From NCBI GenBank assembly GCA_964435035.1, contig CAYSXR010000001.1:144192-208191 (forward strand): a stretch of DNA of 64,000 nt. The letters run 5' to 3'. The notes beneath the pieces were generated by a model. That model saw nothing but the letters and a program-made list of their open reading frames with translations, did no database searches and was not told the origin of the DNA. Position 1 is the first letter of the stretch. Every line of letters starts with the position of its first letter. The DNA comes from an uncultured Gammaproteobacteria bacterium (GTDB taxonomy: Bacteria > Patescibacteriota > Patescibacteriia > Magasanikbacterales > UBA922). Position numbers and translations under genes: made by a program. Below, one piece after another: positions 15,325 through 55,041 of the stretch.

Positions 15325-15353
15325 TTGACAAATTGTCTCACGTGTGATACTAT
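15325..15353 (+). promoter_or_regulatory. Sigma70-type promoter (TTGACA-17-TACTAT) with a perfect palindrome TCACGTGTGA in the spacer
   Basis: attgacaaattgtctcacgtgtgatactat, upstream of the GC-elevated islet genes. Confidence 0.4.
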
Positions 15354-15430
15354 TTTACATTCCAAGTGAAGAGGCGTCTGCCTTTTTACCTCTGGGATAT
15401 AACAAGATCCTTAGGTTATAGGTGTAACTC

Positions 15431-15772
15431 ATGGCTCGTTTGATCGACATGTACTTCACTGCCCCCGTGGTCAACCACTGGACTACCTTCTACGAGAAGG
15501 CGTTCATGGGGGAGCTGATCATGGTTTACATCCATGGGGTGGGACGTCGCTGGGTACTTCTCCAGGACTTTCGCAGTAACGAGGAGGCTAAGAAACTTGA
15601 GTTCAGGGTACAGATTGTGCCGGAGCCGGGTAAAAAAAACCGGGACTCGATACCAAACAGCTGGTTTACTGGCACCTACTCCTGGGAGACCAACGATGGT
15701 TACCTCAAACTGCCGTCGGTTATGCGGCCATTGCCGTCGGTTATCCTCTCAAGCTGGATCAACCACGCCTGA
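15431..15772 (+). CDS. Hypothetical protein (113 aa) in the GC-elevated islet
   Basis: An AGGTG RBS lies 7 nt upstream. Protein-like composition, whereas the overlapping alternative ORF is Arg-rich. No family assignable. Confidence 0.4.
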   Translation: MARLIDMYFTAPVVNHWTTFYEKAFMGELIMVYIHGVGRRWVLLQDFRSNEEAKKLEFRVQIVPEPGKKNRDSIPNSWFTGTYSWETNDGYLKLPSVMRPLPSVILSSWINHA

Positions 15773-15850
15773 GGCAATAGCACACCCGACGCGTGCACAA
15801 GATTTGTTCCCACATGGGCACAAAATCGCGCACGCGTCGGGAACAATCTA

Positions 15851-15882
15851 CCCTATACCATGATTGGTATGGGGTTTTTGTT
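15851..15882 (+). terminator. Rho-independent terminator (10-bp stem ccctatacca/tggtatgggg, loop tgat, T-run)
   Basis: ccctataccatgattggtatggggtttttgttt. It is preceded by larger nested inverted repeats (cccgacgcgtgc ... gcacgcgtcggg). Confidence 0.55.
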
Positions 15883-15975
15883 TACAAAAATATTTTTTAC
15901 ACGTAAAATATCTCACGTTGATTCTGCAATACATAGTGCAGAAATGGCTCCATCGAAAAAGAGGGGGTTCGCAAA

Positions 15976-16392
15976 ATGGTCTACGATAAAAAATACTCGG
16001 TCGTGCACGAATGGCTGAGACGATTCAATCTGCATGAGGTGGAAGGTCTCCTGGAGCTCTACGTTGAGAAGCCCGCTCATACCTCTATGGATATCAAAAA
16101 AGCACACCCGAAGACGTACGGCACTATCTATGGAAGGACCCCGCTGTCCCAGTGGTGGTACCGGTGCTTCGAGTGCGATCCGAATCTCAGGTACGAGATG
16201 GATCTGTACCTCTCGTCTGGAGGAGACACTGCAGTACTCGTCTACTTCGAGGGGGTCGGTGGTGGAAATCCTCCAGCACATCGGATGATCACCTTCACCT
16301 TCGAGGGTCTCCTGATCAAGAGTACGAAGACTGAAGATGTGGACGATCATAGTTCACACATTCGTGGTGCAATCAACCCACGAGCCAACTGA
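15976..16392 (+). CDS. SnoaL/NTF2-like (ketosteroid-isomerase-fold) protein, 138 aa
   Basis: The pattern VVHEWLRRFN...D.EGLLELY...WW..F..DP.L..E......GDTAVLV.FEG.GG......H.MITFTFEGLLI fits the SnoaL_2/NTF2-like fold. RBS AGAGGGGG upstream. Confidence 0.5.
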   Translation: MVYDKKYSVVHEWLRRFNLHEVEGLLELYVEKPAHTSMDIKKAHPKTYGTIYGRTPLSQWWYRCFECDPNLRYEMDLYLSSGGDTAVLVYFEGVGGGNPPAHRMITFTFEGLLIKSTKTEDVDDHSSHIRGAINPRAN

Positions 16393-16538
16393 GTCTCACG
16401 GGGGGCACACTGACAAAAATAGCCCCCCAACCTGTACATATTGGTATATAGCAAGTATCTACAGGTTGGGAGGGAAAATGGGCTATGTTGTGATGCATGT
16501 AGTGCTACCCGATGCGTATCGTATTGATTAGATACAAT

Positions 16539-16574: not shown

Positions 16575-16647
16575 TGACCCCGGTGGGGATCGAACCCACG
16601 ACCATTGGCTTAAAAGGCCACTGCTCTACCAGCTGAGCTACAGGGTC
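16575..16647 (-). tRNA. tRNA-Lys (anticodon UUU)
   Basis: Manual fold of the reverse complement gives a 7-bp acceptor stem, a GGTTCGATCC T-arm, and anticodon loop CU-UUU-AA. 73 nt, no encoded CCA. Confidence 0.85.
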
Positions 16648-36727: not shown

Positions 36728-36831
36728 ATGAGGTAAAGATAACCAATTAAATATCTGTGTGAATGAAATATATAATACGTTTTTTTTACACGTTTGTCAA
36801 TATGTAGAGGGTCGTCTACAAAACAAAAGAC

Positions 36832-42070: not shown

Positions 42071-42184
42071 TAAATTCAAAACTTAAATCTCAAAATTCAA
42101 AACTGGAATTCAAAATTCCGGGAGATGAAAGTTTTAAGATTTAAGTTATAGTTTTGAACTTTGAGTTTTACATTTTGAATTTAA
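42071..42184. repeat. AT-rich long hairpin element (arms about 50 bp built from AAATTCAAAACTTAAA / TTTGAGTTTTAC units), immediately after the stop codon
   Basis: taaattcaaaacttaaatctcaaaattcaaaactggaattcaaaattccggg | ...gttttaagatttaagttatagttttgaactttgagttttacattttgaattt. Related copies at 51671-51728 and 61796-61843. Confidence 0.55.
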
Positions 42185-42220
42185 TATATTATTTCCATCA
42201 CTATTTAAACTTAGTCTACT

Positions 42221-43393: not shown

Positions 43394-46240
43394 GTGTGTA
43401 TGGTAGCGATATCCCCCGAACAATCAGTACCGCAAGAATCACGAAAGAAAAAAACACCTGATACGGTAAAAATAGAGAAATATAGTGAGGTGTGGGAGCA
43501 TGCAAAAAATCTGGAGGGTAAAATAAAAAAACTCAAAGAACATGCAATCGATGCGGATGAAATCGGAGAAATAGAAGGTATTCTCAAAGATGCAAAAGGA
43601 TATTTTTCTAGATTTGGAGAGAAAAAAGATAAAGGCAGAAGTGTTGCTCAGCTTGAAGAGAGGCGTAAGGCTGCAGTAGAAAAACTTACTGACCTTAATC
43701 GGCGCATGGTGTCGATGCTTGAAAAATTAGGACAACCAATTCCTAATACTCTTTTGTCGTACAAAGACAGTGGATTTGTTGATATTGTAAAAGAATCTAA
43801 TAAAGAAGGGTTGTCTGAAGAAAAAAAAGAAGAAGTGTCTGAAGTTGTGGGTGCTCATATAATTCAGCCCCCTGAAAATTATTCTAAAGAGTCATTGGGT
43901 GATTCAGAAATTGGTGGTGTGAATAGTATCGAGGCGCCAGAGAAGAAGGAAGAAGTGTTGGTTTCTGCCGAAGAGTCGCCTGTAAATGTACGAGAGGAAT
44001 CATCCTCACCTGAAACACCAATAGAAGATGTTATCAAGATTTCTTCAGGAGGAAAAACATATGAATTCGGCTGGCACGAACAGGTGGTTTACACTACTGC
44101 AAAGGGTAAGCAGCTTGAGTGTATTGTGCTTGGAAAATCAAATGATGAGAATAAGCCGGGGCTTATTTTGAAAGATCTTGAAAAAGGAAAAGTATTTGCT
44201 CTTGGTGCAGATGCGGTTGCAAAACGGGTACATGTTTCTGATGGTGAAATAGTTTCTCCACGTGTAGAAAATAATAAGGCCGATTCTGGTCAATCTGCTG
44301 AAGGTGAAGATATTGATAGAGAAGAAAAAGCTGCTCTTGAAAAAATGAAAAAAGACCAGAGGGAAGTAGAAGAGAAAAAAGCTCAAGAATTAAGTGAATT
44401 ATTAGCACAAGCTGGAAAGTCTGCCGAAGATGACACTTCATTTGTACACACAAGCACAGATGAGAGGGGAAGTTTCGATCAGAAGATGGTTGATAAACTT
44501 GTAGCTGATGGATCGATTGAAAAAATTAACACGTTATTGAAAAATAAATCCGAGGTGTGGGTACAGGAAGATGGTAAATGGTATCAGGGTGTAGTGCAAG
44601 ATATTACCGGAGCACAGGTGGGTGTTACTGTAGGAGAGGAGGGTCGAGAGAAAAAATATTTCTATGTGGATGCTGAAGAATTTTTGGGCATGCAGGATCG
44701 AGCGAAAAAATTGTTGAAATACAAAAAAGAATTAGAGCTTCCCTCGGTGGTGGTGGACACCGAATTCCTCGCTCGTCCAGATACGATCACCAAAGGTGAA
44801 ATTTTTACTCCTCCGACCGAGAGAAAGACCGTACCTGACGTGCCTCTAGTGAGTATTGATACTCCATTGCCGGTACGAGAACGAAAAACCTACCCAGAAG
44901 TTTCAGAAAAAAAAGCAATACAGATGATTCAATCAGTCGCTGAAGAATTTGAAAAAACATGGAAAGGAATGCGCATGATGACGACAGAAAAACAAAAGAC
45001 CGGATGGCTCCAGAGTAAGGAAGTTGAACGAGAGATGACGGTGACAGAAAAAAAGGAGCAATTAGAAGCGTGGCTTGATATGGTGGAGCAGGCATTTGAT
45101 TCACTCGACAAGCAAAAAGATGGGACACACATGGAAAAACCAGTACTCATGTGGCATCAGGCACAGGCATTAATTCGCGCATTAGAAAATGAACTTCGGT
45201 ATACAGAAGAAACGAATAAAAGTGAAGAGTGGGATCACGCACTTGAGGCTTTTAGTAGTATAATTAATGAAAGAAGCACACGTCTCAAGGAAAAAAAGAA
45301 AGGGTCATTGATTGCACCGTGGGCCATGAAAACGACACTTGCTGCCTTGGGTGCTTTTGCAATCGGAAATGCAACAAACAATCGAATAGAAGATGTGGCT
45401 GCAGTGAGTGAACGATATATGGAAGCAGGTGAAAAAAAATATGAATTACCCAGAGAAGAACATACGGGTGATGCACAGAGAAATATGCTAGATTTTGTAA
45501 TTAATATGAATCGGATGATAAACGAGCCCACACTTTCGATAACACCCGTTGCAATTGATGCTCGACTTACTCCACAGATCAAGGATAAAATATCAGGGAA
45601 AGTTCCGGGTTTGGCTGGTGCAGAAATAGCATCTGATGGAAAATCAGTTACATTGACTTTTGATAATAACCAAACAGTTGAAAGTCGTCCTGAAAAAATA
45701 CAAAAGTCGGGTCGCGATAGTTGGAAACTGAAGACAGCTGAGAAAAAGGGTCCGGAGTATGGCGAACAAATGTTGAGAGAATTAAGGAAAGTATTGGGTG
45801 AAGTAAAGCAAGAGTTTCCTGATATGTTTCGTGGACCAGAATCATCTTCCAAGCAAAAGAGAGTAGTAAGAACAGTAGTACAGGCCGAAAAGAAATTACG
45901 AGAAGCAGAGGTAGTAATACCGAGAAGTGGTGAGGCGAGAAGACAGTTGGAACAAGTAAAACAGGTGTTGGAACAAGTAAAACCAGGACTCGAATCTATT
46001 TCAAAAGAGATTGTAGATGAGATTAAGGCAGAGGATCTCGAATTGCCACAGGATGTATTTGTGCGTTTTAGTCGAGAGGTTACGTTTGATCCAAAGGCAG
46101 ATGCTCTATTTGAGGAATGGGGAAATGCACGAAATTCTCTCAAAGCAGCACAGGAAGCAGGAGATCAAGAGGGGGTAAAGAAAAGTAACGAGGAGTTGCG
46201 TAAGGTTATTGAAAAAATAACGAAAGAGTATAGTAAATAA
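43394..46240 (+). CDS. Large Lys/Glu-rich coiled-coil protein (948 aa)
   Basis: Long ORF with low-complexity charged coiled-coil segments; no enzymatic motifs. Confidence 0.6.
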   Translation: MCMVAISPEQSVPQESRKKKTPDTVKIEKYSEVWEHAKNLEGKIKKLKEHAIDADEIGEIEGILKDAKGYFSRFGEKKDKGRSVAQLEERRKAAVEKLTDLNRRMVSMLEKLGQPIPNTLLSYKDSGFVDIVKESNKEGLSEEKKEEVSEVVGAHIIQPPENYSKESLGDSEIGGVNSIEAPEKKEEVLVSAEESPVNVREESSSPETPIEDVIKISSGGKTYEFGWHEQVVYTTAKGKQLECIVLGKSNDENKPGLILKDLEKGKVFALGADAVAKRVHVSDGEIVSPRVENNKADSGQSAEGEDIDREEKAALEKMKKDQREVEEKKAQELSELLAQAGKSAEDDTSFVHTSTDERGSFDQKMVDKLVADGSIEKINTLLKNKSEVWVQEDGKWYQGVVQDITGAQVGVTVGEEGREKKYFYVDAEEFLGMQDRAKKLLKYKKELELPSVVVDTEFLARPDTITKGEIFTPPTERKTVPDVPLVSIDTPLPVRERKTYPEVSEKKAIQMIQSVAEEFEKTWKGMRMMTTEKQKTGWLQSKEVEREMTVTEKKEQLEAWLDMVEQAFDSLDKQKDGTHMEKPVLMWHQAQALIRALENELRYTEETNKSEEWDHALEAFSSIINERSTRLKEKKKGSLIAPWAMKTTLAALGAFAIGNATNNRIEDVAAVSERYMEAGEKKYELPREEHTGDAQRNMLDFVINMNRMINEPTLSITPVAIDARLTPQIKDKISGKVPGLAGAEIASDGKSVTLTFDNNQTVESRPEKIQKSGRDSWKLKTAEKKGPEYGEQMLRELRKVLGEVKQEFPDMFRGPESSSKQKRVVRTVVQAEKKLREAEVVIPRSGEARRQLEQVKQVLEQVKPGLESISKEIVDEIKAEDLELPQDVFVRFSREVTFDPKADALFEEWGNARNSLKAAQEAGDQEGVKKSNEELRKVIEKITKEYSK

Positions 46241-46416
46241 CATTTTGATATAGAGAAGAAAAATCACTGATAGCAGTCGGTGATTTTTTGTTTTTTTAAG
46301 GTGTTTGGGCTAGAAATGTGCTAAAAAGTATGAGAGTAGTCAAAAGGGGCTACACCCTTTACTTTTTGTCAAAATTTGCATAAAGTACGTTAATGCTTAT
46401 TGTGGCAGGGGTATAC

Positions 46417-46445
46417 TTGACAAAAAGGTATAAATATGCTATAGT
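46417..46445 (+). promoter_or_regulatory. Strong sigma70-type promoter TTGACA-17-TATAGT (cassette type P: cTTGACAaaaaggtataaatatgcTATAGTac)
   Basis: Perfect -35 and a 17-bp spacer. Near-identical cassettes occur at 49347-49375 and 63780-63808. It lies about 210 nt upstream of the first high-GC gene. Confidence 0.55.
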
Positions 46446-46655
46446 ACTGCGTTATTTCAAAAGCCCTACATAGGTCTTCGAAATAGCAATCCAGGGGCCC
46501 CATCAGAGAGGATATGTGTCCCTTCTGATGGAGTCCCTGGTCTAGGAGCTCCCACTGTGGCCCGTTCGGGCAATAGTGAGAGCCTTAGGCTCATTACAAT
46601 CGAAGAAGCTAGAACACGTGCCCCTATGAAAGGGGTGTAAACGAGGAGATCAGAA

Positions 46656-48104
46656 ATGATTGACCGCAACAAGAAGAGCAACAAGAAGAGCACGCCCGTG
46701 AAGGGCGGCGCTGCGGCGAACCCGCAGGCGATGGCAACCGTGGCGTCTCACAAGGACGACACGGCTCAGATCGATGTGGTGGTCGAGACCAATCCCGAGG
46801 CCGACAAGGTCGAGGGTGAGGTCAAGGCCGATGAAGAGGCGAAGGTCGAAGAGACCGTCGCCACCGCCCCGACCGAGAACGTCGAGAAGAGCGAGGAGCC
46901 GGCCGTTGTGGTCGACCCCGAGCCCGAGCTCGAGCAGAAGCGGAACTTCCGTAAGGAAGACCTCCGCCTCCGGTACAACGACAACCCGCAGGTGCTGCTC
47001 ACCTCCGCGGATCTCAGCGAAGAGGACAAGGTCCTCATCGGCGAGATCGCGAGCGAGCAGAACCAGGTCGTCCGCGACTATGCCGCGCTGGCACAGGAGC
47101 TGACCGACGAGAAGGACCAGCTCGAGCAGAAGCTCGACGCGACCAACTCCAAGCTGGGGAACGTCACCAACCTCATCGCGACCACGGTCAAGGAGACCGT
47201 GGGACAGGTGGACAAGGAGACGTCGGCCTTGATCGAAGGTCTGAAGATCGAGATCGAGGGCGTCATCGGCAAGGGTAACGGCGTGAAGAACGCCGTCACG
47301 AAGATCGGGGACGATGTCAACAAGGACATCGGCTCGCTCAAGGGTCAGGTCAACGCCAACGCCAAGTCGGTCAACGACAAGGTCGATGGGATGGCCGCGA
47401 TGCTCGGGAAGATCGACGAGAAGATCTCCGAGATCAAGTCCCCGCCGCCCCCGCAGCAGCCGCCGGCTCAGTCCAGCACCACCCCGTCCTCCGGATCCTC
47501 CGGGTGGCCGTGGGTCGTGGCCGTGGGCATCTTGCTCGCGGCCGTGATCGCGGTCTTCCTCCTGAACAAGGATGTGAAGATCGAGGTCCAGGTGCAGCAG
47601 CCGGCGGTGAACACCGTGAAGGGTGTGGTGCCGCCGGTGGTGGACAACGCTCTCGGGGTGACCTCGCAGCAGGTGACCCCGGGTGGACCGGGGAATCCGA
47701 TCGTGCCCACGGTGGTCGGTGCCACGTCCGAGGATCCCTGCAAGGGGAAGGTCGGTGGGGAGCTCGGGTCGTGTGTCCTTCAGCTGGAGAAGTTCCGGCC
47801 GAAGGGGTTCACTGATGCGCACTGGAACACGGTCGTCGAGACCTTCCAGAACGTCATCATGGTCCCCTTGAGCGTTCCGTTCAAGGACATCAAGCACCAC
47901 GACAAGGCCATCGAGCACAACATGAGGAAAGACGCGGCACTGCAGGCGTGCGTCGACGCATACGTCTTGAAGACGGATGATGTCGAGTCGAACGTCCGGT
48001 GTCAGCGGGCGGTCGATTGTCTGTTCACTTCGGTGGACGAGGCAGCACAGTGCTACATGACGCATACGCGCTCGATCACGGGCGTTTTGGTCACTGTCAA
48101 CTGA
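46656..48104 (+). CDS. Island gene 1: bitopic membrane protein (482 aa) with a cytoplasmic 11-mer-repeat/coiled-coil N-domain, one TM, and an extracytoplasmic Cys-containing C-domain
   Basis: Protein-like composition on the + strand versus R/L/D/G-rich junk on the antisense strand. TM WPWVVAVGILLAAVIAVFLL preceded by a PPPPQQPPAQ linker. Confidence 0.65.
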   Translation: MIDRNKKSNKKSTPVKGGAAANPQAMATVASHKDDTAQIDVVVETNPEADKVEGEVKADEEAKVEETVATAPTENVEKSEEPAVVVDPEPELEQKRNFRKEDLRLRYNDNPQVLLTSADLSEEDKVLIGEIASEQNQVVRDYAALAQELTDEKDQLEQKLDATNSKLGNVTNLIATTVKETVGQVDKETSALIEGLKIEIEGVIGKGNGVKNAVTKIGDDVNKDIGSLKGQVNANAKSVNDKVDGMAAMLGKIDEKISEIKSPPPPQQPPAQSSTTPSSGSSGWPWVVAVGILLAAVIAVFLLNKDVKIEVQVQQPAVNTVKGVVPPVVDNALGVTSQQVTPGGPGNPIVPTVVGATSEDPCKGKVGGELGSCVLQLEKFRPKGFTDAHWNTVVETFQNVIMVPLSVPFKDIKHHDKAIEHNMRKDAALQACVDAYVLKTDDVESNVRCQRAVDCLFTSVDEAAQCYMTHTRSITGVLVTVN

Positions 48105-48159: not shown

Positions 48160-49095
48160 ATGAAGCAGCTCGTCGCGAAGATCGTGGTTTATTACATCGT
48201 ACTTCTCTCGGCGTCGGCCTTCGGCTCGACGCCGAACCCCGGTGACCAGTTCGACCTGATCCAGGGAGGGATCCCGGCGAAGGTCGAGGTCACGCAGCAG
48301 GAGATCAAGGCGATGGACACGTCCATCGACCAGCTCCTGAAGCGCACCGGCGGTCTCCTCAAGAAGGACGCCGAGCTCAAGAAGGAGCTCGAGGACCTCA
48401 AGAAGGAGCTCGAGGACCTCAAGAGCAAGCTCGACAAGGTGGTGAAGCCGGGTGATCTCACGGTCATCCGAGTGGATCTGGGAAGGTTGTGGACGCAAGT
48501 CAACAACCATGGACAGCGCCTCACCGAGCTCGAGCAGGACGTCGAAGATCTGAAGAGGAGCGACAAGGCTCAGGACGATCGACTCGGTGATCACGACCAG
48601 AAAATCGAGGACATCAACAAGCGCCTCGATCGAGGTCTCGGAGTGAAGTTCGGCATCGGAGCCTATGGCGTCTACGGGACGCAAGGCTCGATCAACGGTG
48701 GAGCTTCGGCTCGGCTGAGGATCCCGCTGTCCGGTGGATGGCAAGCGATCGTCAATGGCGGAGTCGGCGGCAACCATCAGGGAGCTTCAGGATTCGCCGA
48801 TCTGTCGGTCGGCTACCAGTTCGCGAGCGGCATCTACCTGGGGGCAACCCTCGGTATCGACGCCAACTGCGACGGTATGTGCACCAGGCTCCTCACGGAG
48901 ATCTGGGGCGCAGGTCCCGACATCGGCTACCTGTCCGACGATGGACTCTTCATCCGGGCTCGTGTGCTCTTCGGGAGCGAGTGGATCAAGGGTCCGACGA
49001 TGCAGATCGAGTACCCGGATCGTACGGTCTTCAAGACCGACGAGTCCCGGGAGTTCGGCATCTCGGCTTTGATCCAGCTCGGTCACGAGTTCTAG
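48160..49095 (+). CDS. Island gene 2: secreted protein (311 aa) with signal peptide, a KKELEDLKKELEDLK coiled-coil, and a Gly-rich amphipathic beta C-terminal region ending in Phe (possible outer-membrane beta-barrel)
   Basis: Signal peptide LLSASAFG; alternating hydrophobic pattern GVKFGIGAYGVYG...ADLSVGYQFASGIYLGATLGIDA...; terminal ...LGHEF. Confidence 0.6.
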   Translation: MKQLVAKIVVYYIVLLSASAFGSTPNPGDQFDLIQGGIPAKVEVTQQEIKAMDTSIDQLLKRTGGLLKKDAELKKELEDLKKELEDLKSKLDKVVKPGDLTVIRVDLGRLWTQVNNHGQRLTELEQDVEDLKRSDKAQDDRLGDHDQKIEDINKRLDRGLGVKFGIGAYGVYGTQGSINGGASARLRIPLSGGWQAIVNGGVGGNHQGASGFADLSVGYQFASGIYLGATLGIDANCDGMCTRLLTEIWGAGPDIGYLSDDGLFIRARVLFGSEWIKGPTMQIEYPDRTVFKTDESREFGISALIQLGHEF

Positions 49096-49346
49096 ACTTC
49101 AAGATTCGGGGAGTGTCTCTACTCCCCGGACCCCTCACCTCGCCGACTTCAAGGCAGAAGGGATAAGACAATGAGACAAACACTCGAGTAAACGGCGTGG
49201 TCGCACAACGCGGCCCCCAATACTGGAGCATGGGCGATATTTCGAAAGAAATGTCGCCCCTCGCACAGCGTATATCAGTCTCTGGTATGCGATGACGAGA
49301 AAAGCATCTCACGTAAATCCCGACTAAATCGGGACACGTGACAAGC

Positions 49347-49375
49347 TTGACAAACGAGAGTATTTATGCTATACT
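49347..49375 (+). promoter_or_regulatory. Promoter cassette type P (cTTGACAaacgagagtatttatgcTATACTaag) within an AT-rich patch inside the island
   Basis: TTGACA-17-TATACT, highly similar to 46417 and 63780. Confidence 0.5.
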
Positions 49376-49500
49376 AAGCTGTTACAAAATAAAGAAGTGC
49401 CATGGGAAATCTCGATGTAGTCGGGGTATCTATGGTAGATCGTCATGCACTGCATGGTGGTCCATTGAACCTTACAATATATGCGAAATGTATAAAAAGC

Positions 49501-49544
49501 TTGAAAGGCTAGAAAGGCCGGAAAGGCTTGAAATGCTAGAGAAC
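49501..49544 (+). repeat. Tandem 9-mer direct repeats (ttgaaaggc tagaaaggc cggaaaggc ttgaaatgc tagagaac) in the leader of island gene 3
   Basis: Direct reading; about 5 units with core GAAAGGC. Confidence 0.5.
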
Positions 49545-49685
49545 GTATCTTGTGACGTGAAGAAAGAAATTTTCAATAAGAATTTTTTCTTAGCGTCACG
49601 AGGAGTTCTCAGGCGTGAAAACTTCTCGTGTGGTACACGAGGAAGCAACAACAAAACCCCGATTGAATCGGGGAGGAGAAGAGTC

Positions 49686-51452
49686 ATGAAGAAGTTCAAC
49701 AAGTTCCTGTTCGTCGTCATGTTCATCTCGTTCGTCGCGGCCATCACGGGCTGCGCCGATCACGGTGGCGAGACGGTCGTCGTCAAGGGTGACGATGGGG
49801 AGAGCGTCAAGCTCTGCCCCGAGGAGCATCAGTGCTCCTCGGCCGAGTTCTGCAACTCGCAGGGTCTCTGCGTCATCCCCGGTGCCAACGGCACCAACGG
49901 CGAGGACTTCGAGCGATGCTCGAATAGTCGTGGTGACTGTGTCGGTAACGAGCTCTGCAACTCGCAGGGCGTGTGTGTGCTCGAAGGTCCGCAAGGGCCG
50001 GCGGGGGAGTCCTGTACCGTGTCGACGAAGGTCGACGGGTGCTTCTTCCTCTACTGTGGCGCAAGCGTCACGGAGATCTGCGACGGCGAGGACGGTGTGT
50101 CCTGCACGGTCGCAGGGCAGCCGGACGGCAGCGCTCAGGTCGAGTGCTCGGACGGTTCGTTCGCGACCATCCTCCCCGGACAAGACGGCGAGGACGGTCT
50201 CAACGGCACGAGCTGCACGGCCTCGACGGTCAAAGGTTGCCTCGTGGTGACCTGCGGAACGCAGTCGACGGAGATCTGCCCGGAGGATCTTCCGGATCCC
50301 GAGCCGGTCGACGGCTGCCAGAAGGACTCGGACTGCACGGACGGCAGCGAGTGCACCAACGACATCTGCGATCTCAACACCGGCACCTGCCGGTACGTGT
50401 CGCAGGTGTGTGATGACGGCGTCGCCTGCACCAACGACTGGTGTGACACGAACGGCTACTGCCGTTCGACCGCGGACAATGATCAGTGCAGCGGCGGCGA
50501 CTTCTGCTTGCCGACCGGTTACTGGTTTTGGTCCTCGGCGGTGGGTTCTGAGGAACTCGCTGACGGAGGCTGTTACGAGTGCCGCTGGGACTCTGATTGT
50601 GCCGACGGCGACGCGTGTACGGTCGACACCTGCGACGCGGGTGTTTGCAAGAAGGAAACGCGCGAGTGCCCCACGGGTGCGACGTGCGTCGAGTACTCGA
50701 GCAACTACTACGACGACTCGGAGTGGAACTACGTGTGCCAGGACAATCCGTCGTGCAGCAACAACAGCCAGTGCGACGACGGCAAGTACTGGACGACGGA
50801 TGCGTGCGTGGCCGGGGAGTGTGTCTACACCCAGGTGTCGTGCAACGACAACAACGCATGCACCGTGGACACGGTGAACTCGAGTGGGCAGTGCACCTAC
50901 GCCCAGATCTCGTGCGACGATGGCAAATCCGCCACGGTCGACACGTGCTCTGCGAATACGGGGTGCGTACACACGCCGGTGAACACCGGCTGCGAGCACG
51001 ATCTCGATTGCGATGACGTCGACGGTACGACCACGGACCTGTGCGAGGACAACGGGAGCTGTACACATACTCCCAATGCCCAGTGCAAGTCCCTGACGGT
51101 CAAGGTCGGCTGGGCCATCCTGTGGTCGCGCGGTCCCGAGATCGGAACCACCAATGTCCCGATGGGCAACTGGCGTAGCTGCGAGGAAGACGAGGCGGAG
51201 AACTGCCGTACCATGTCGTGGTGCGGTGACGACATCGTGGAGTTCAATGTTCAGCAGATGCCGAACGTGGCAGGTGCCGACTGGCTCGTGAAGAACGAGA
51301 AAGGCGACAGCCCTTGCACGTCGAACGCAGATGCGACCTTGAACTACACGCCCGCTGATCTCTTCGTCGGGGCGACGCCGGTGCAGAAGGGCTGTTCGCT
51401 CTTCTGCGACCCGAACGGGTACACCAACTACACCTGCGATTCCGCGGAGTAG
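49686..51452 (+). CDS. Island gene 3: Cys-rich repeat lipoprotein (588 aa; start at ATG 49686 with a GGAGG RBS)
   Basis: Lipoprotein signal MKKFNKFLFVVMFISFVAAITGC. Many C-x-x-D-x-D-C / C-T-N-D-x-C-D repeats (e.g. CQKDSDCTDGSECTNDICDLNTGTCRY, CDDGVACTNDWCDTNGYC). The ORF track's upstream extension from 49338 is AT-rich non-coding leader. Confidence 0.7.
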   Translation: MKKFNKFLFVVMFISFVAAITGCADHGGETVVVKGDDGESVKLCPEEHQCSSAEFCNSQGLCVIPGANGTNGEDFERCSNSRGDCVGNELCNSQGVCVLEGPQGPAGESCTVSTKVDGCFFLYCGASVTEICDGEDGVSCTVAGQPDGSAQVECSDGSFATILPGQDGEDGLNGTSCTASTVKGCLVVTCGTQSTEICPEDLPDPEPVDGCQKDSDCTDGSECTNDICDLNTGTCRYVSQVCDDGVACTNDWCDTNGYCRSTADNDQCSGGDFCLPTGYWFWSSAVGSEELADGGCYECRWDSDCADGDACTVDTCDAGVCKKETRECPTGATCVEYSSNYYDDSEWNYVCQDNPSCSNNSQCDDGKYWTTDACVAGECVYTQVSCNDNNACTVDTVNSSGQCTYAQISCDDGKSATVDTCSANTGCVHTPVNTGCEHDLDCDDVDGTTTDLCEDNGSCTHTPNAQCKSLTVKVGWAILWSRGPEIGTTNVPMGNWRSCEEDEAENCRTMSWCGDDIVEFNVQQMPNVAGADWLVKNEKGDSPCTSNADATLNYTPADLFVGATPVQKGCSLFCDPNGYTNYTCDSAE

Positions 51453-51670: not shown

Positions 51671-51728
51671 AAAATTCAAAACTTAAAACTTAAAACTCAA
51701 AATTTAGATTTAAGTTGTGAGTTATTAC
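51671..51728. repeat. Copy of the AT-rich AAAACTTAAAACTCAAA hairpin element inside the high-GC island
   Basis: aaaattcaaaacttaaaacttaaaactcaaaatttagatttaagttgtgagttattac. Same unit as 42071-42184. Confidence 0.5.
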
Positions 51729-51821: not shown

Positions 51822-51913
51822 AAATTCCATTACCTCGGGTATATCGTATAATGATGGTATATCTATGGTAGAGGAATTCTACACGCCAGTTCACAAAAAC
51901 CAGGAGGGGACAC

Positions 51914-52651
51914 ATGTTGGGTATGACGTTTCGTTTGTTTGTTTTCTGTCTCACCGTGTTCACCGCCGCATGCATCGAGGATATGCGGCGGGAGGAAGCG
52001 TCCATGGTCCAGGTCGATACGTCGACTGGCATCATGGATATGGTGGAGGAAGTCAAAGACGTACCAGATTCACGGGTCCGTGATCGGTATGATATCGAAT
52101 TTCCTCCTACAGCCGACGAGTGTGTCGTCGATGAATTCATCGCAGAGGGAAGCCCTTGCGATGATGGCGATGCATGCACGATCGATGTCTGTATCCAGGG
52201 CATGTGTCGTAATCGAGCTATCGACTGCGACGACGGAAATCCCTGGACGGATGACGAGTGCATCGTCGACACTGGGGCGTGCTCCAGTGTACATCGGGTG
52301 ACTCATTTCACCGTTCGCGCGGAGCGTCCGGGAAAGGTGAAGCTTTGGTATGGGAATCACACCGAGCCAGAGACCTATCCCATGAACTCGAGCTTCGAGA
52401 TCCAGAAGATGGATCTCTGCGTCGAGAACCGTGTGCTCACGCTCGCGGTAGAGGACGAAGAGTTCCCGGGAACCTACTGGGGTTGTAACCCTGGCCTTCC
52501 TTCGAAGAGGGAACTCGCAGTCGAGATCGACGGGGTGGACACGCCCGGTTATTTCGCTGCGGATCTCGGATGGGAGGTGCCCAACTCTGCGTGTGGTGGG
52601 AAGGGAGAGGGTGACCTCTACTTCTTGCGGGCGCAACTCGCATGTGACTGA
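51914..52651 (+). CDS. Island gene 4: small Cys-rich lipoprotein (245 aa) sharing the CTxDxC motif and a C-terminal CNPGLPSK domain with genes 3 and 5
   Basis: Signal/lipobox FRLFVFCLTVFTAAC. The segment CDDGDACTIDVCIQGMCRNRAIDCDDGNPWTDDEC. C-terminal GCNPGLPSKRELAVEIDGV aligns with LDCNPGFPSKSTLTVMVNGV of gene 5. CAGGAGGGG RBS. Confidence 0.65.
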   Translation: MLGMTFRLFVFCLTVFTAACIEDMRREEASMVQVDTSTGIMDMVEEVKDVPDSRVRDRYDIEFPPTADECVVDEFIAEGSPCDDGDACTIDVCIQGMCRNRAIDCDDGNPWTDDECIVDTGACSSVHRVTHFTVRAERPGKVKLWYGNHTEPETYPMNSSFEIQKMDLCVENRVLTLAVEDEEFPGTYWGCNPGLPSKRELAVEIDGVDTPGYFAADLGWEVPNSACGGKGEGDLYFLRAQLACD

Positions 52652-52739: not shown

Positions 52740-52768
52740 TTGACAAAATACTCTTTTCCTGATATGTT
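52740..52768 (+). promoter_or_regulatory. Candidate promoter TTGACA-17-TATGTT for island gene 5
   Basis: attgacaaaatactcttttcctgatatgttg. Confidence 0.4.
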
Positions 52769-52998: not shown

Positions 52999-55041
52999 AT
53001 GCGTCTGAAGAACAACAACAACCGGATGTTCATCATCACGGTTGCCCTCGCCATGGGGTTCATGGCGGCGTGCACGGAACACGGCGGCGACGAGCCGATC
53101 GTGGTCGTGATGAAGGCGGACCTCGACCTCGACGAGGTCCCCAACAACGTCGACAACTGCCCGGGGGACAACAACCCCGATCAGTTGGACACCGACGGCG
53201 ACGGCATGGGCGATGCGTGCGACAACGACGTCGACGGCGACGGGGTCTTGAACCCCGCCGACAACTGCCCCGACAACTTCAACCCCGACCAGGCGAACCT
53301 CGACAAGGTCCTGGCCGACAGCGGCAACGTCACCGTGGTCGCGGATCTCTTCGGAGACGTCTGCGACAACGACGACGACGGCGACGTGGTCTGCGACCCC
53401 TGGCTCGGCGTGGACGGGTGGGAAGAATTCCATCCCGGTCAGGGCGAGACGTGTCAGGGCGAGGACAACTGTCCCGACGTCGCCAACGCCGACCAGGCGA
53501 ACCTCGACAAGGACTTCGAGGGCGACGTCTGCGACAACGACGTCGACGGCGACGGCGACCTCAACGGCGCAGACAACTGCCCGCTCGTGACCAACGCCGA
53601 CCAGGCAAACCTGGATCGGGACGACTGGGGCGACGCCTGCGACACCGACGACGACAACGACAGCTTCTGCGACGAAGCTGCCCCCGTCTCGATGCCGCGA
53701 AATGCGCCCGCGATGCCCCTCTGCGAGGGCGAGGACAACTGCCCCCGCTTCAAGAACGCGGGACAGGAAGACATGGACGAGGACGGCATGGGCGACGTCT
53801 GCGACGACGACTGCGACGGGGACCTCTACCCCGAAGCGTCGCCCTGGGATTTCCCCAACCTGTCGTGCTTCGTGTATTGCAATCCGGAAGGTCCGGGAAC
53901 CGAGTGCGACGACGCGAACACGTGCACCACGGACACCTGCAACGGGCAGGGCGTTTGCGAGTACGTGTTCACGCAGTCCGAGACGTGCGAATGCGTCTTG
54001 GACTCCGACTGCGAGCCGACCGACGCCTGCGTCACCGAGATGGCGTGCGTGGAAAACACGTGCGTCGAGACCGGATGGAAGGTCCTGACCGACGGGGACA
54101 ACTGCACCATCGACACCTGTGATCCCTCGACCGGCGTGGTCACCCACGTCGAGAAGGACTGTGGTGGGGACCTCTGCGGAGGAGGCCTCTCGTGTAACCG
54201 CATGACCGGAGAGTGCAGCACACCCGTGCCGCAAATTCCGATCAACGACAGCAACGCCTGCACCACCGACGCGTGCGATCCCGAGACCGGCGTGGTCACC
54301 CACGTCGCGATCGTCTGCGACGATGGGAACGCATGCAACGGCACCGAGACGTGCAACCCGGCTTCCGGGTGCGTCGCGGGTACGCCGCTCACGTGCGATG
54401 ACGGAAGCGTCTGCACGATCGACAGTTGTTCGGCAAACACCTGCCAACACGTGGCGGTGACGACGAACGACAACAACATGTGCACCACCGACACCTGCGA
54501 TCCCGAGATGGGGGTGCAGCACACGGCGGTGGTGTGCAACGACGTGAACTCCAACACCACCGACACCTGCGATCCGGCGACGGGTTGCGTGCACACGCCG
54601 ACGGGGAACTGCACGGTCAACGCGGATTGCAACGACAGCAATCCCCTGACCTACGACACCTGCGTCGCGCTCGTCTGCCAACATGTGGAAGGTGTCCGCG
54701 TGCAGGTCTCGTCGACCGACACGTCGGAGACCTGGCAGGTCAATTTCTACTACAACGGTACGACGATCTCCGGCAACCTGCCCTTCGACGGGACCTTGCC
54801 GAAGACGCTCGCATGCAGCTGGGGCGCCGACATCGCCGTCAACCGTCCGAGCACGAACTTGTTCTTGGACTGCAACCCGGGGTTCCCCTCGAAGTCCACC
54901 CTGACCGTCATGGTCAATGGTGTCACGAAGGCGAACGACTTCCAGGTTCGTTCGCAGGCATGCGACGGCGCTCCGCCGGGCAACCTGTGGCTCTCCGACG
55001 AGAGCGGTGACAACGACCTGGGATGCCCCGCGGCACCCTAG
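52999..55041 (+). CDS. Island gene 5: lipoprotein (681 aa) with at least 5 thrombospondin type-3 Ca-binding repeats followed by CTTDxCDPxTG Cys-rich repeats and the shared C-terminal domain
   Basis: Signal/lipobox MFIITVALAMGFMAAC. DNCPGDNNPDQLDTDGDGMGDACDNDVDGDG-type TSP3 repeats (five DNCP motifs). Repeated CTTDTCDPETGVVTHV/CDDG units. RBS GGAGGAAGG upstream of ATG 52999. Confidence 0.75.
   Translation: MRLKNNNNRMFIITVALAMGFMAACTEHGGDEPIVVVMKADLDLDEVPNNVDNCPGDNNPDQLDTDGDGMGDACDNDVDGDGVLNPADNCPDNFNPDQANLDKVLADSGNVTVVADLFGDVCDNDDDGDVVCDPWLGVDGWEEFHPGQGETCQGEDNCPDVANADQANLDKDFEGDVCDNDVDGDGDLNGADNCPLVTNADQANLDRDDWGDACDTDDDNDSFCDEAAPVSMPRNAPAMPLCEGEDNCPRFKNAGQEDMDEDGMGDVCDDDCDGDLYPEASPWDFPNLSCFVYCNPEGPGTECDDANTCTTDTCNGQGVCEYVFTQSETCECVLDSDCEPTDACVTEMACVENTCVETGWKVLTDGDNCTIDTCDPSTGVVTHVEKDCGGDLCGGGLSCNRMTGECSTPVPQIPINDSNACTTDACDPETGVVTHVAIVCDDGNACNGTETCNPASGCVAGTPLTCDDGSVCTIDSCSANTCQHVAVTTNDNNMCTTDTCDPEMGVQHTAVVCNDVNSNTTDTCDPATGCVHTPTGNCTVNADCNDSNPLTYDTCVALVCQHVEGVRVQVSSTDTSETWQVNFYYNGTTISGNLPFDGTLPKTLACSWGADIAVNRPSTNLFLDCNPGFPSKSTLTVMVNGVTKANDFQVRSQACDGAPPGNLWLSDESGDNDLGCPAAP

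Follow-up and report, generated by a model that had tools for sequence, protein, structure and literature searches.

Consensus promoters before GC-rich genes and a GT4 gene in an uncultivated Magasanikbacteria genome: probable convergence on a polymerase optimum

Phage 'morons' are genes that carry their own promoter and terminator and whose composition is unlike that of their surroundings. A shorter element found in front of genes, the -16 region of promoters, was reportedly defined by Voskuil and Chambliss in 1998. Consensus sigma70/sigmaA promoters in which this region, also termed an extended -10, reads TRTG are typical of Firmicutes and other Terrabacteria, and general features include a preference for 17-bp spacers, a TG or TRTG, an A/T tract adjoining the -35 and initiation 7 bp downstream of the -10 (PMC12641261). 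Here we examine three sites of this kind in one window, by which we mean the whole stretch of 64,000 nucleotides analyzed (contig CAYSXR010000001.1 of assembly GCA_964435035.1, positions 144,192 to 208,191, forward strand), from an uncultivated bacterium of the Candidate Phyla Radiation (CPR). The contig is 276,756 nt long, and the IF-3 and a lytic transglycosylase encoded in the window belong to 90%-identity protein clusters in which the named members are Candidatus Magasanikbacteria. Two of the sites stand before genes of high GC content and the third before a GT4 gene. The original prediction, made from the letters of the sequence, saw in them a near-identical promoter cassette, which could be either a very constrained strong consensus promoter or a portable unit placed in front of captured genes. 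Our results indicate that the sites are, with good probability, independent housekeeping (sigma70/sigmaA-type) promoters, each close to the optimum of RNA polymerase.

The likeness to the extended -10 type is close. The window has the same TTGACA, the same 17-bp spacer, TRTG one base 5' of the -10 and TATAnT, as well as the A-tract at the -35, the A/T-rich spacer and the position after terminators facing genes. We find no structural difference from that type; here position 5 of the -10 is G or C, not A, and the host is an uncultivated CPR bacterium. The GC-rich genes resemble morons in that every gene or pair of genes comes with a complete promoter of its own, in some cases also with a terminator-like hairpin, and has a composition that differs sharply from the flanks, and single-gene versions are found in metagenome contigs (L054, L056, L033 and L015). 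Unlike morons, they have no prophage context, are syntenic and conserved in relatives instead of sporadic, and have long conserved structured leaders. A block of ~8.5 kb with a GC content of 0.56-0.64 and a GC content at third codon positions (GC3) of up to 0.89, against 0.40 and 0.30 for the genome, which codes for secreted or surface proteins and differs in content from one relative to the next, also recalls a horizontally acquired genomic island. Unlike such an island, it showed no integrase, tRNA junction, flanking repeats or donor homologues; it keeps its position and GC3 in six genomes at 45-78% protein identity, and its intergenic parts are host-like and contain a host repeat. Finally, the leaders of 205-305 nt (z = -5.4 to -7.0) are comparable to structured 5' untranslated regions (UTRs) such as riboswitches, attenuators and 5' stabilizer stem-loops, as they are more conserved than the coding sequence and form a hairpin that starts only a few nucleotides from the predicted start. 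They differ in having no Rfam match and no demonstrated ligand-type core or terminator/antiterminator pair.

Three sites of one promoter type

The predicted promoters at the three sites are as follows.

P1, 46417..46445, + strand: -35 TTGACA at 46417-22, 17-nt spacer ending TATGc, -10 TATAGT at 46440-45, predicted start ~46452
P2, 49347..49375, + strand: TTGACA, 17-nt spacer ending TATGc, TATACT, predicted start ~49382
P3, 63780..63808, + strand: TTGACA, 17-nt spacer ending TGTGg, TATAGT, predicted start ~63815

The sequences at 46416-46447 (cTTGACAaaaaggtataaatatgcTATAGTac), 49346-49377 (cTTGACAaacgagagtatttatgcTATACTaa) and 63779-63810 (cTTGACAaaagtatatagatgtggTATAGTac) are as originally described. 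They hold the only exact matches to TTGACA-N17-TATANT (46417, 49347 and 63780) on both strands of the 64 kb, where 0.07 are expected, and three or more such matches were reached by none of 100 shuffled sequences. Each site agrees with 11 of the 12 consensus positions and has a TG in addition, as part of an element one base upstream of the -10 that reads TATGc at sites 1 and 2 and TGTGg at site 3 (TRTG). All three are intergenic, lie downstream of the end of the preceding gene and are oriented toward the next; a terminator-like hairpin precedes sites 1 and 3, and P3 starts 24 nt 3' of its terminator (63725-63756). A repeat finder places the sites in one family with 70% and 82% identity over 33 nt. 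To call them near-identical is nonetheless an overstatement, as the positions at which the three agree are the consensus positions. A spacer motif, gtat, had also been considered shared, but it begins at spacer position 6, 8 and 4 in sites 1, 2 and 3, and hence out of register, and is missing from the L010 and L071 versions of P1; it was rejected as a shared element. Also set aside was a 13-mer, TATCTATGGTAGA, present in two spacers (49427 and 51860), which may have arisen by chance: 10 of 100 shuffles gave at least three matches with at most two mismatches.

Promoters from unrelated organisms show the same features. Searching public metagenomes with the fullest pattern common to sites 1 and 2 (TTGACAAA-N11-ATGC-TATANT-A-N4-GTTAY) yielded 57 loci, 43 of them non-redundant, from unrelated lineages and on contigs ranging in GC content from 0.27 to 0.63. 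At positions that this query left free, the base before TTGACA (-1) is C or A in 41 of the 43 and never T, a T precedes ATGC in 39, and A/T predominates in the 3' half of the spacer. The core motif without GTTAY was found in at least 120 viral stretches, against one for a reversed, composition-matched motif. Among 100 non-redundant viral promoters, C occupies -1 in 65% and T precedes ATGC in 72%, and the upstream region is A-rich. Every feature that the sites share recurs in these 43 metagenome and 100 viral promoters, which bears out the original suggestion of a constrained strong consensus promoter. The shared features also match the architecture described in PMC12641261, and this supports a generic promoter. 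The lineage, it appears, uses the textbook TTGACA-17-TRTGnTATAnT arrangement.

We propose that the three sites look alike because they have converged on the same optimum and not because they were copied from each other. This optimum would consist of a C, the -35 TTGACA and an A-tract, then a 17-bp A/T-rich spacer, the TRTG of the -16 region (or extended -10) and a -10 of TATA(G/C)T followed by A, and transcription would be predicted to start ~7 nt after the -10, near 46452, 49382 and 63815. Transcripts from P1 would run through a 205-nt structured leader into g1-g2, those from P2 through a 305-nt structured leader into g3 and those from P3 through a short leader into the GT4 gene. The long leaders originally ascribed to all three sites are thus present at sites 1 and 2 (~205 and ~305 nt) and not at site 3, where ~37 nt separate the predicted start from the start codon at 63852. 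The gene behind site 3 (MRIAMIGQKGIP...) had been correctly recognized as a GT4 gene; its orthologues match Pfam Glyco_transf_4 and Glycos_transf_1.

A search for g1 homologues among 5.8 billion proteins returned four, every one in the same context; to their four contigs we added two contigs of metagenome-assembled genomes found by the leader pattern and one found by g4. Relatives have a common layout, in which a large host protein is followed by a terminator, a conserved upstream block, P1, leader 1 and a GC-rich g1. P1 is at the syntenic place in L005/L009, L006, L007/L011, L008, L010 and L195 (seven assemblies, six distinct versions), and L071 has at that place a same-type promoter with a different leader. 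Two of these genomes, L010 and L011, bear the title 'uncultured Gammaproteobacteria bacterium', which looks wrong in view of the synteny and of the names in the IF-3 cluster. The -35, TATGC and -10 are invariant in the six leader-1 versions and in the L071 promoter while spacer positions 3-11 drift (variants aaaaggtataa, aaagggagtat, aaataccccat, aaagtatgtat and aaaagcttcct), which argues for selection on a working promoter and not for a recently inserted unit. P2 is conserved in four genomes (L006, L007/L011 and L010), with fixed hexamers and TATGC and a variable 5' half of the spacer. L195 lacks P2 along with its whole gene module and has other genes there. Site 3 is covered by none of the relatives' contigs; P3-type promoters with unrelated spacers precede GT4 orthologues (M[RK]IAMIGQKGIP...) in four unrelated metagenome lineages. 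One contig differs at P2: L008 (3225-3263) tracks L011 (4425-4470) until the base before the -35 and is then unrelated up to the contig end 29 nt later, which may represent an alternative junction or a branch of the assembly graph.

The block upstream of P1 is itself highly conserved.

46354..46382, + strand: conserved block upstream of P1, ACCCTTTACTTTT..AATTTGCATA, ~-100 to -70 from the predicted start

It consists of invariant columns in the alignment, is present in L010 and L195 as well and is invariant in seven genomes. A possible role is that of a UP-type element or a binding site for a regulator.

Further promoters of the same or a weaker type were found elsewhere in the window.

P4, 52740..52768, + strand: TTGACA-17-TGaTATGTT, 10 of 12 consensus positions plus TG, followed by a ~224-nt structured leader and then g5
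15325..15353, + strand: same-type promoter, TTGACA-17-TGTGaTACTAT, heading a GC-rich open reading frame (ORF) at 15431-15772 with a GC3 of 0.72
51824..51852, + strand: weaker candidate promoter of g4, ATTCCA-17-TATAAT, 9 of 12, 3' of a terminator-like hairpin
36772..36800, - strand: host promoter for comparison, TTGACA-17-TATTAT, upstream of a tRNA gene
4798, 16780, 36953, 37793 and 39360, - strand: further near-consensus host promoters

The same-type promoters at 52740 (before g5) and 15325 had been missed in the original prediction. Five supported, predicted promoter positions can now be annotated in this uncultivated CPR genome, together with predicted start sites and the limits of the leaders. 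Within the window, host genes for tRNAs, tmRNA and proteins also follow near-consensus promoters. A relaxed pattern, TTGACN-N16-18-TANNNT, has 11 matches in the window against 8.5 +/- 2.7 in shuffles, which is no excess; this count was therefore dropped as evidence, the informative part being placement only. Of the 11 relaxed matches, ten fall between genes in the correct orientation; such DNA makes up ~5% of the search space (p ~1e-12, or ~1e-7 if a 3-fold A/T enrichment is allowed). A match at 10 or more of the 12 positions occurs in 11 of 29 upstream regions, compared with 2% of size-matched coding segments. Within the 64 kb and the fragments of relatives that the promoter scan covered, the search for further copies thus comes to three exact and eight relaxed matches, all of which are explained as ordinary promoters. 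Coding DNA seems poor in the relaxed motif, with one of the 11 matches inside an ORF (the shuffle expectation being ~8.5 window-wide), and this sole match is upstream of the tmRNA gene.

GC-rich genes and structured RNAs behind the promoters

The genes and RNAs of the cluster are listed below.

46656-48104, + strand: g1, coiled-coil/transmembrane protein, GC3 0.89
48160-49095, + strand: g2, signal peptide and coiled coil, GC3 0.81, in a GC-rich operon with g1
49686..51452, + strand: g3, lipoprotein with Cys-rich Dicty_CTDC-type repeats, GC3 0.84, mosaic between genomes
51914-52651, + strand: g4, lipoprotein
52999-55041, + strand: g5, TSP3 and Dicty_CTDC lipoprotein (Pfam)
46452..46655, + strand: leader 1, ~205-nt structured 5' UTR, three conserved hairpins plus a small one preceding a GAGGAG ribosome-binding site
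49100..49315, + strand: inter-gene RNA, ~215 nt, conserved and structured, between the g2 stop codon and P2, a 3' UTR element or a separate RNA
49382..49685, + strand: leader 2, ~305-nt structured 5' UTR of g3, minimum free energy (MFE) z = -6.95

In a genome of ~40% GC with a GC3 near 0.30, the five genes between 46.6 and 55.0 kb have a GC content of 56-64% and a GC3 of 0.65-0.89; g3, g4 and g5 encode lipoproteins with Dicty_CTDC and thrombospondin type 3 repeats. Sites 1 and 2 do lie in AT-rich patches before high-GC genes, the intergenic spacers of the cluster having 42-46% GC and the genes behind these sites 60-64% GC with a GC3 of 0.77-0.89. An A/T-rich repeat of the 'TCAAAACTTAAAACT' type is present in host intergenic DNA (42072-42187 and 61794-61852) and in the g3-g4 spacer (51672-51713), and the cluster spacers hence share host-specific repeats.

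These genes had been described as foreign or captured. The cluster is not a recent capture, because it is syntenic (in L005-L008, L010, L011 and L195), has the same high GC3 in six genomes and gave no donor in the search; nor are its genes demonstrably foreign. The GC3 of g1 is 0.85-0.90 in L005, L006, L007, L008, L010 and L195, compared with 0.29-0.37 for the adjacent host gene, and that of g2 is 0.74-0.85 in every genome. Between genomes, g1 and g2 have 28-78% protein identity (in L006, 78% for g1 and 91% for g2). L195 retains P1 and leader 1, and the segment from g4 through P4 to g5 at 87.7% nucleotide identity, which exceeds that of most flanking host genes, with other genes in between. 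The P4 promoter itself is nearly the same in L195 and the window. The donor search gave four homologues of g1, all in the same context, and no GC-rich donor; for g5 it gave repeat-level TSP3 and Dicty matches only, at 12-53% coverage, and for g4 one 78% orthologue and repeat-level matches. Exact-protein look-ups of g1, g2 and the upstream 948-aa protein produced no match. A domain scan of the cluster and six flanking genes detected no integrase or transposase, no boundary repeats or tRNA junction of the cluster were found, and a literature search revealed no description of GC-rich clusters in Magasanikbacteria. A GC3 near 0.9 beside one of 0.3 across at least six diverged genomes is contrary to the expected drift of imported DNA toward host composition.

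There is evidence that the best promoters are associated with such genes. Within the window, promoters of the six GC-rich transcription units match at 10.2 of 12 positions, compared with 8.8 for 23 host units (Mann-Whitney p = 0.007). On metagenome contigs of at least 3 kb, GC3 outliers account for 4 of 20 first genes behind the promoter as opposed to 2 of 170 other ORFs (Fisher p = 0.0012), in a test with small numbers and crude ORF calling. The outlier first genes are those of L054 (a TSP3 protein; GC3 0.83), L056 (0.97), L033 (0.89) and L037 (0.93), and L015 (0.85) is an extra example on a contig too short for the test. In L025 the gene behind the same promoter has a GC3 of 0.60. The genes of all six contigs are single genes in A/T-rich surroundings, often with a leader of at least 200 nt. 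These figures suggest a tendency of GC-rich genes within A/T-rich genomes to bring their own complete, near-perfect promoter. GC-rich ORFs in a genome of 40% GC would offer no fortuitous promoter-like sequence and would be silent without a strong promoter of their own, so that each unit would need a complete one. The link of these promoters to unusual genes, as drawn in the original prediction, persists in the over-representation of best-consensus promoters before GC3 outliers; the cassette origin, one of the two options offered there, is not supported.

The RNAs around the promoters are unusually well conserved. Leader 1 has 85-95% nucleotide identity across genomes, compared with 45-78% for the g1 protein and 31-59% for the upstream host protein, and an MFE z of -6.7 against shuffles. 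In its consensus fold, one-sided changes retain pairing and two pairs are compensatory, a low number that reflects how little the sequence varies. From the upstream gene across P1 and into leader 1, as far as its middle (~46553), L006 and the window are 100% identical; they diverge from there on, and this point inside leader 1 may be a recombination breakpoint. The inter-gene RNA (49100-49315) has 78-97% nucleotide identity, and 95% of cells are paired. Ten of its pairs have changed on both sides, compared with 3.7 +/- 1.5 in shuffles (0 of 500) and 0-2 when partners were slid, in a test on five sequences in which the structure was derived from the same alignment. The 3' half of leader 2 is ~85% conserved in L010 and L011, and the P4 leader (~224 nt) has an MFE z of -5.4. 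A search of the whole window against Rfam 15 at the gathering threshold matched the tmRNA and two tRNAs only, and in E-value mode 46240-46700 and 49080-49700 gave no credible match for the leaders or the inter-gene RNA. Conservation of leader 1 and the inter-gene RNA, two non-coding RNAs of no known family, exceeds that of the flanking genes and of their proteins. If the stable GC3 contrast, these conserved structured RNAs and the association of promoters with GC3 outliers hold, they would provide a testable handle on the expression and diversification of surface proteins in tiny symbiotic bacteria.

Weighing the alternatives

The sequence, placement and orientation of the three sites, the generic nature of the features they share and their same-position conservation in relatives are direct observations. 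Some points weigh against independent housekeeping promoters. Sites 1 and 3 are identical at 16 of 32 free positions, which is at the 5% tail of the null before correction. The A-N4-GTTAY directly 3' of the -10 is common to P1 and P2 in every orthologue seen and is not generic, being present in none of the 100 viral promoters. The census covers 64 kb of the genome and fragments of relatives, and it is from sequence that the sites are very probably active promoters with starts where predicted. A portable cassette, that is, a short mobile or recombined unit with a ready-made promoter inserted before captured genes and the GT4 gene, would fit the formation of one repeat family by the sites (70-82% identity over 33 nt), the juxtaposition of GC-rich coding regions with host-like A/T-rich upstream DNA and the point where L008 parts from L011, which coincides with the 5' edge of the P2 -35 and leaves only 29 nt of contig. 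It is however very improbable. The identity does not extend beyond positions at which unrelated promoters, too, are fixed or biased, and alignment of the three sites gives 10, 12 and 16 pairwise identities at the 32 free positions, where unrelated promoters give 10.7 +/- 2.8. The gtat is out of register. Short direct repeats at the junctions, the signature that had been proposed for such a unit, are 5-6 nt at the longest and are matched by 39-70% of shuffles, and the flanks on both sides of the core have no similarity between sites 1, 2 and 3. P1 and P2 are collinear with their flanks in relatives, where no clear presence/absence polymorphism of the core alone was seen (P1 is always present, and L195 lacks P2 together with its whole module), and comparison by blastn and nhmmer with leaders behind the same motif in other lineages detected no similarity except for one weak 39-nt match. 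What appears by eye to be a reused cassette can be mere convergence on the polymerase optimum.

The GTTAY element lends itself to another explanation, in which P1 and P2 arose by an old duplication, within the cluster, of a promoter with its first transcribed bases, or share a control site, TATGC...TATAnTA-N4-GTTAY, that serves one factor or forms a 5'-terminal stem. This explanation is unlikely. It is favored by the constant register of A-N4-GTTAY in the orthologues and its absence from the viral set, by the P1 GTTAT being the 5' strand of the first leader hairpin, and by several GTTAY-selected metagenome promoters that are followed by a matching ATAAC, a potential 5' stem recognized by eye. 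However, the two leaders share nothing beyond those 5 nt, one post-hoc coincidence of 5 nt is weak evidence, the full GTTAY pattern was recovered from 57 metagenome loci of unrelated lineages, and site 3 has GTTCG where P1 and P2 have GTTAY. A third explanation is compatible with independent housekeeping promoters and is possible, although we would not favor it: the locus may consist of conserved 'expression slots', in which a fixed promoter, leader and inter-gene RNA anchor the recombinational swapping of GC-rich surface-protein genes. L006 is identical through P1 and half of leader 1 before it diverges, with g1 at 78% and g2 at 91% protein identity; identity reaches 85-95% in leader 1 and 78-97% in the inter-gene RNA, as opposed to 28-78% in the g1 and g2 proteins; g3 is a mosaic between genomes behind a conserved P2 and leader 2; and L195 keeps P1 with leader 1 and P4 with g5 and has different genes between them. 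Leader conservation may, however, merely reflect RNA function, the genes may have diverged fast through ordinary diversifying selection, with no exchange involved, and the sample is ~7 genomes. As a tentative extension, such slots might head fast-evolving secreted or surface genes (GC3 0.85-0.90) that are possibly exchanged among Candidatus Magasanikbacteria, with a GC3 maintained in place by mRNA selection or biased conversion and not a residue of recent import, and similar units might exist in other uncultivated lineages.

Other elements of the window

Palindromic elements of ~110 nt (GTCATTCCGAGCGAG...GGAATCTTTCCT) are present at 55253-55358, 61104-61245 and 61580-61720. L195, which is otherwise collinear, lacks 55254-55365 and the whole block at 61082-61743, indicating that the elements are insertions. 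This block comprises two of the palindromic elements and a 92-aa GIY-YIG ORF (61288-61566). Logan contigs break within the palindromic elements.

A second small GC-rich patch, at 15325-16393, adjoins a tRNA gene (16575-16647, minus strand). It contains two ORFs with a GC3 of 0.72 and 0.52 and one promoter each, the second promoter being at 15881 (TTTACA-17-TAAAAT).

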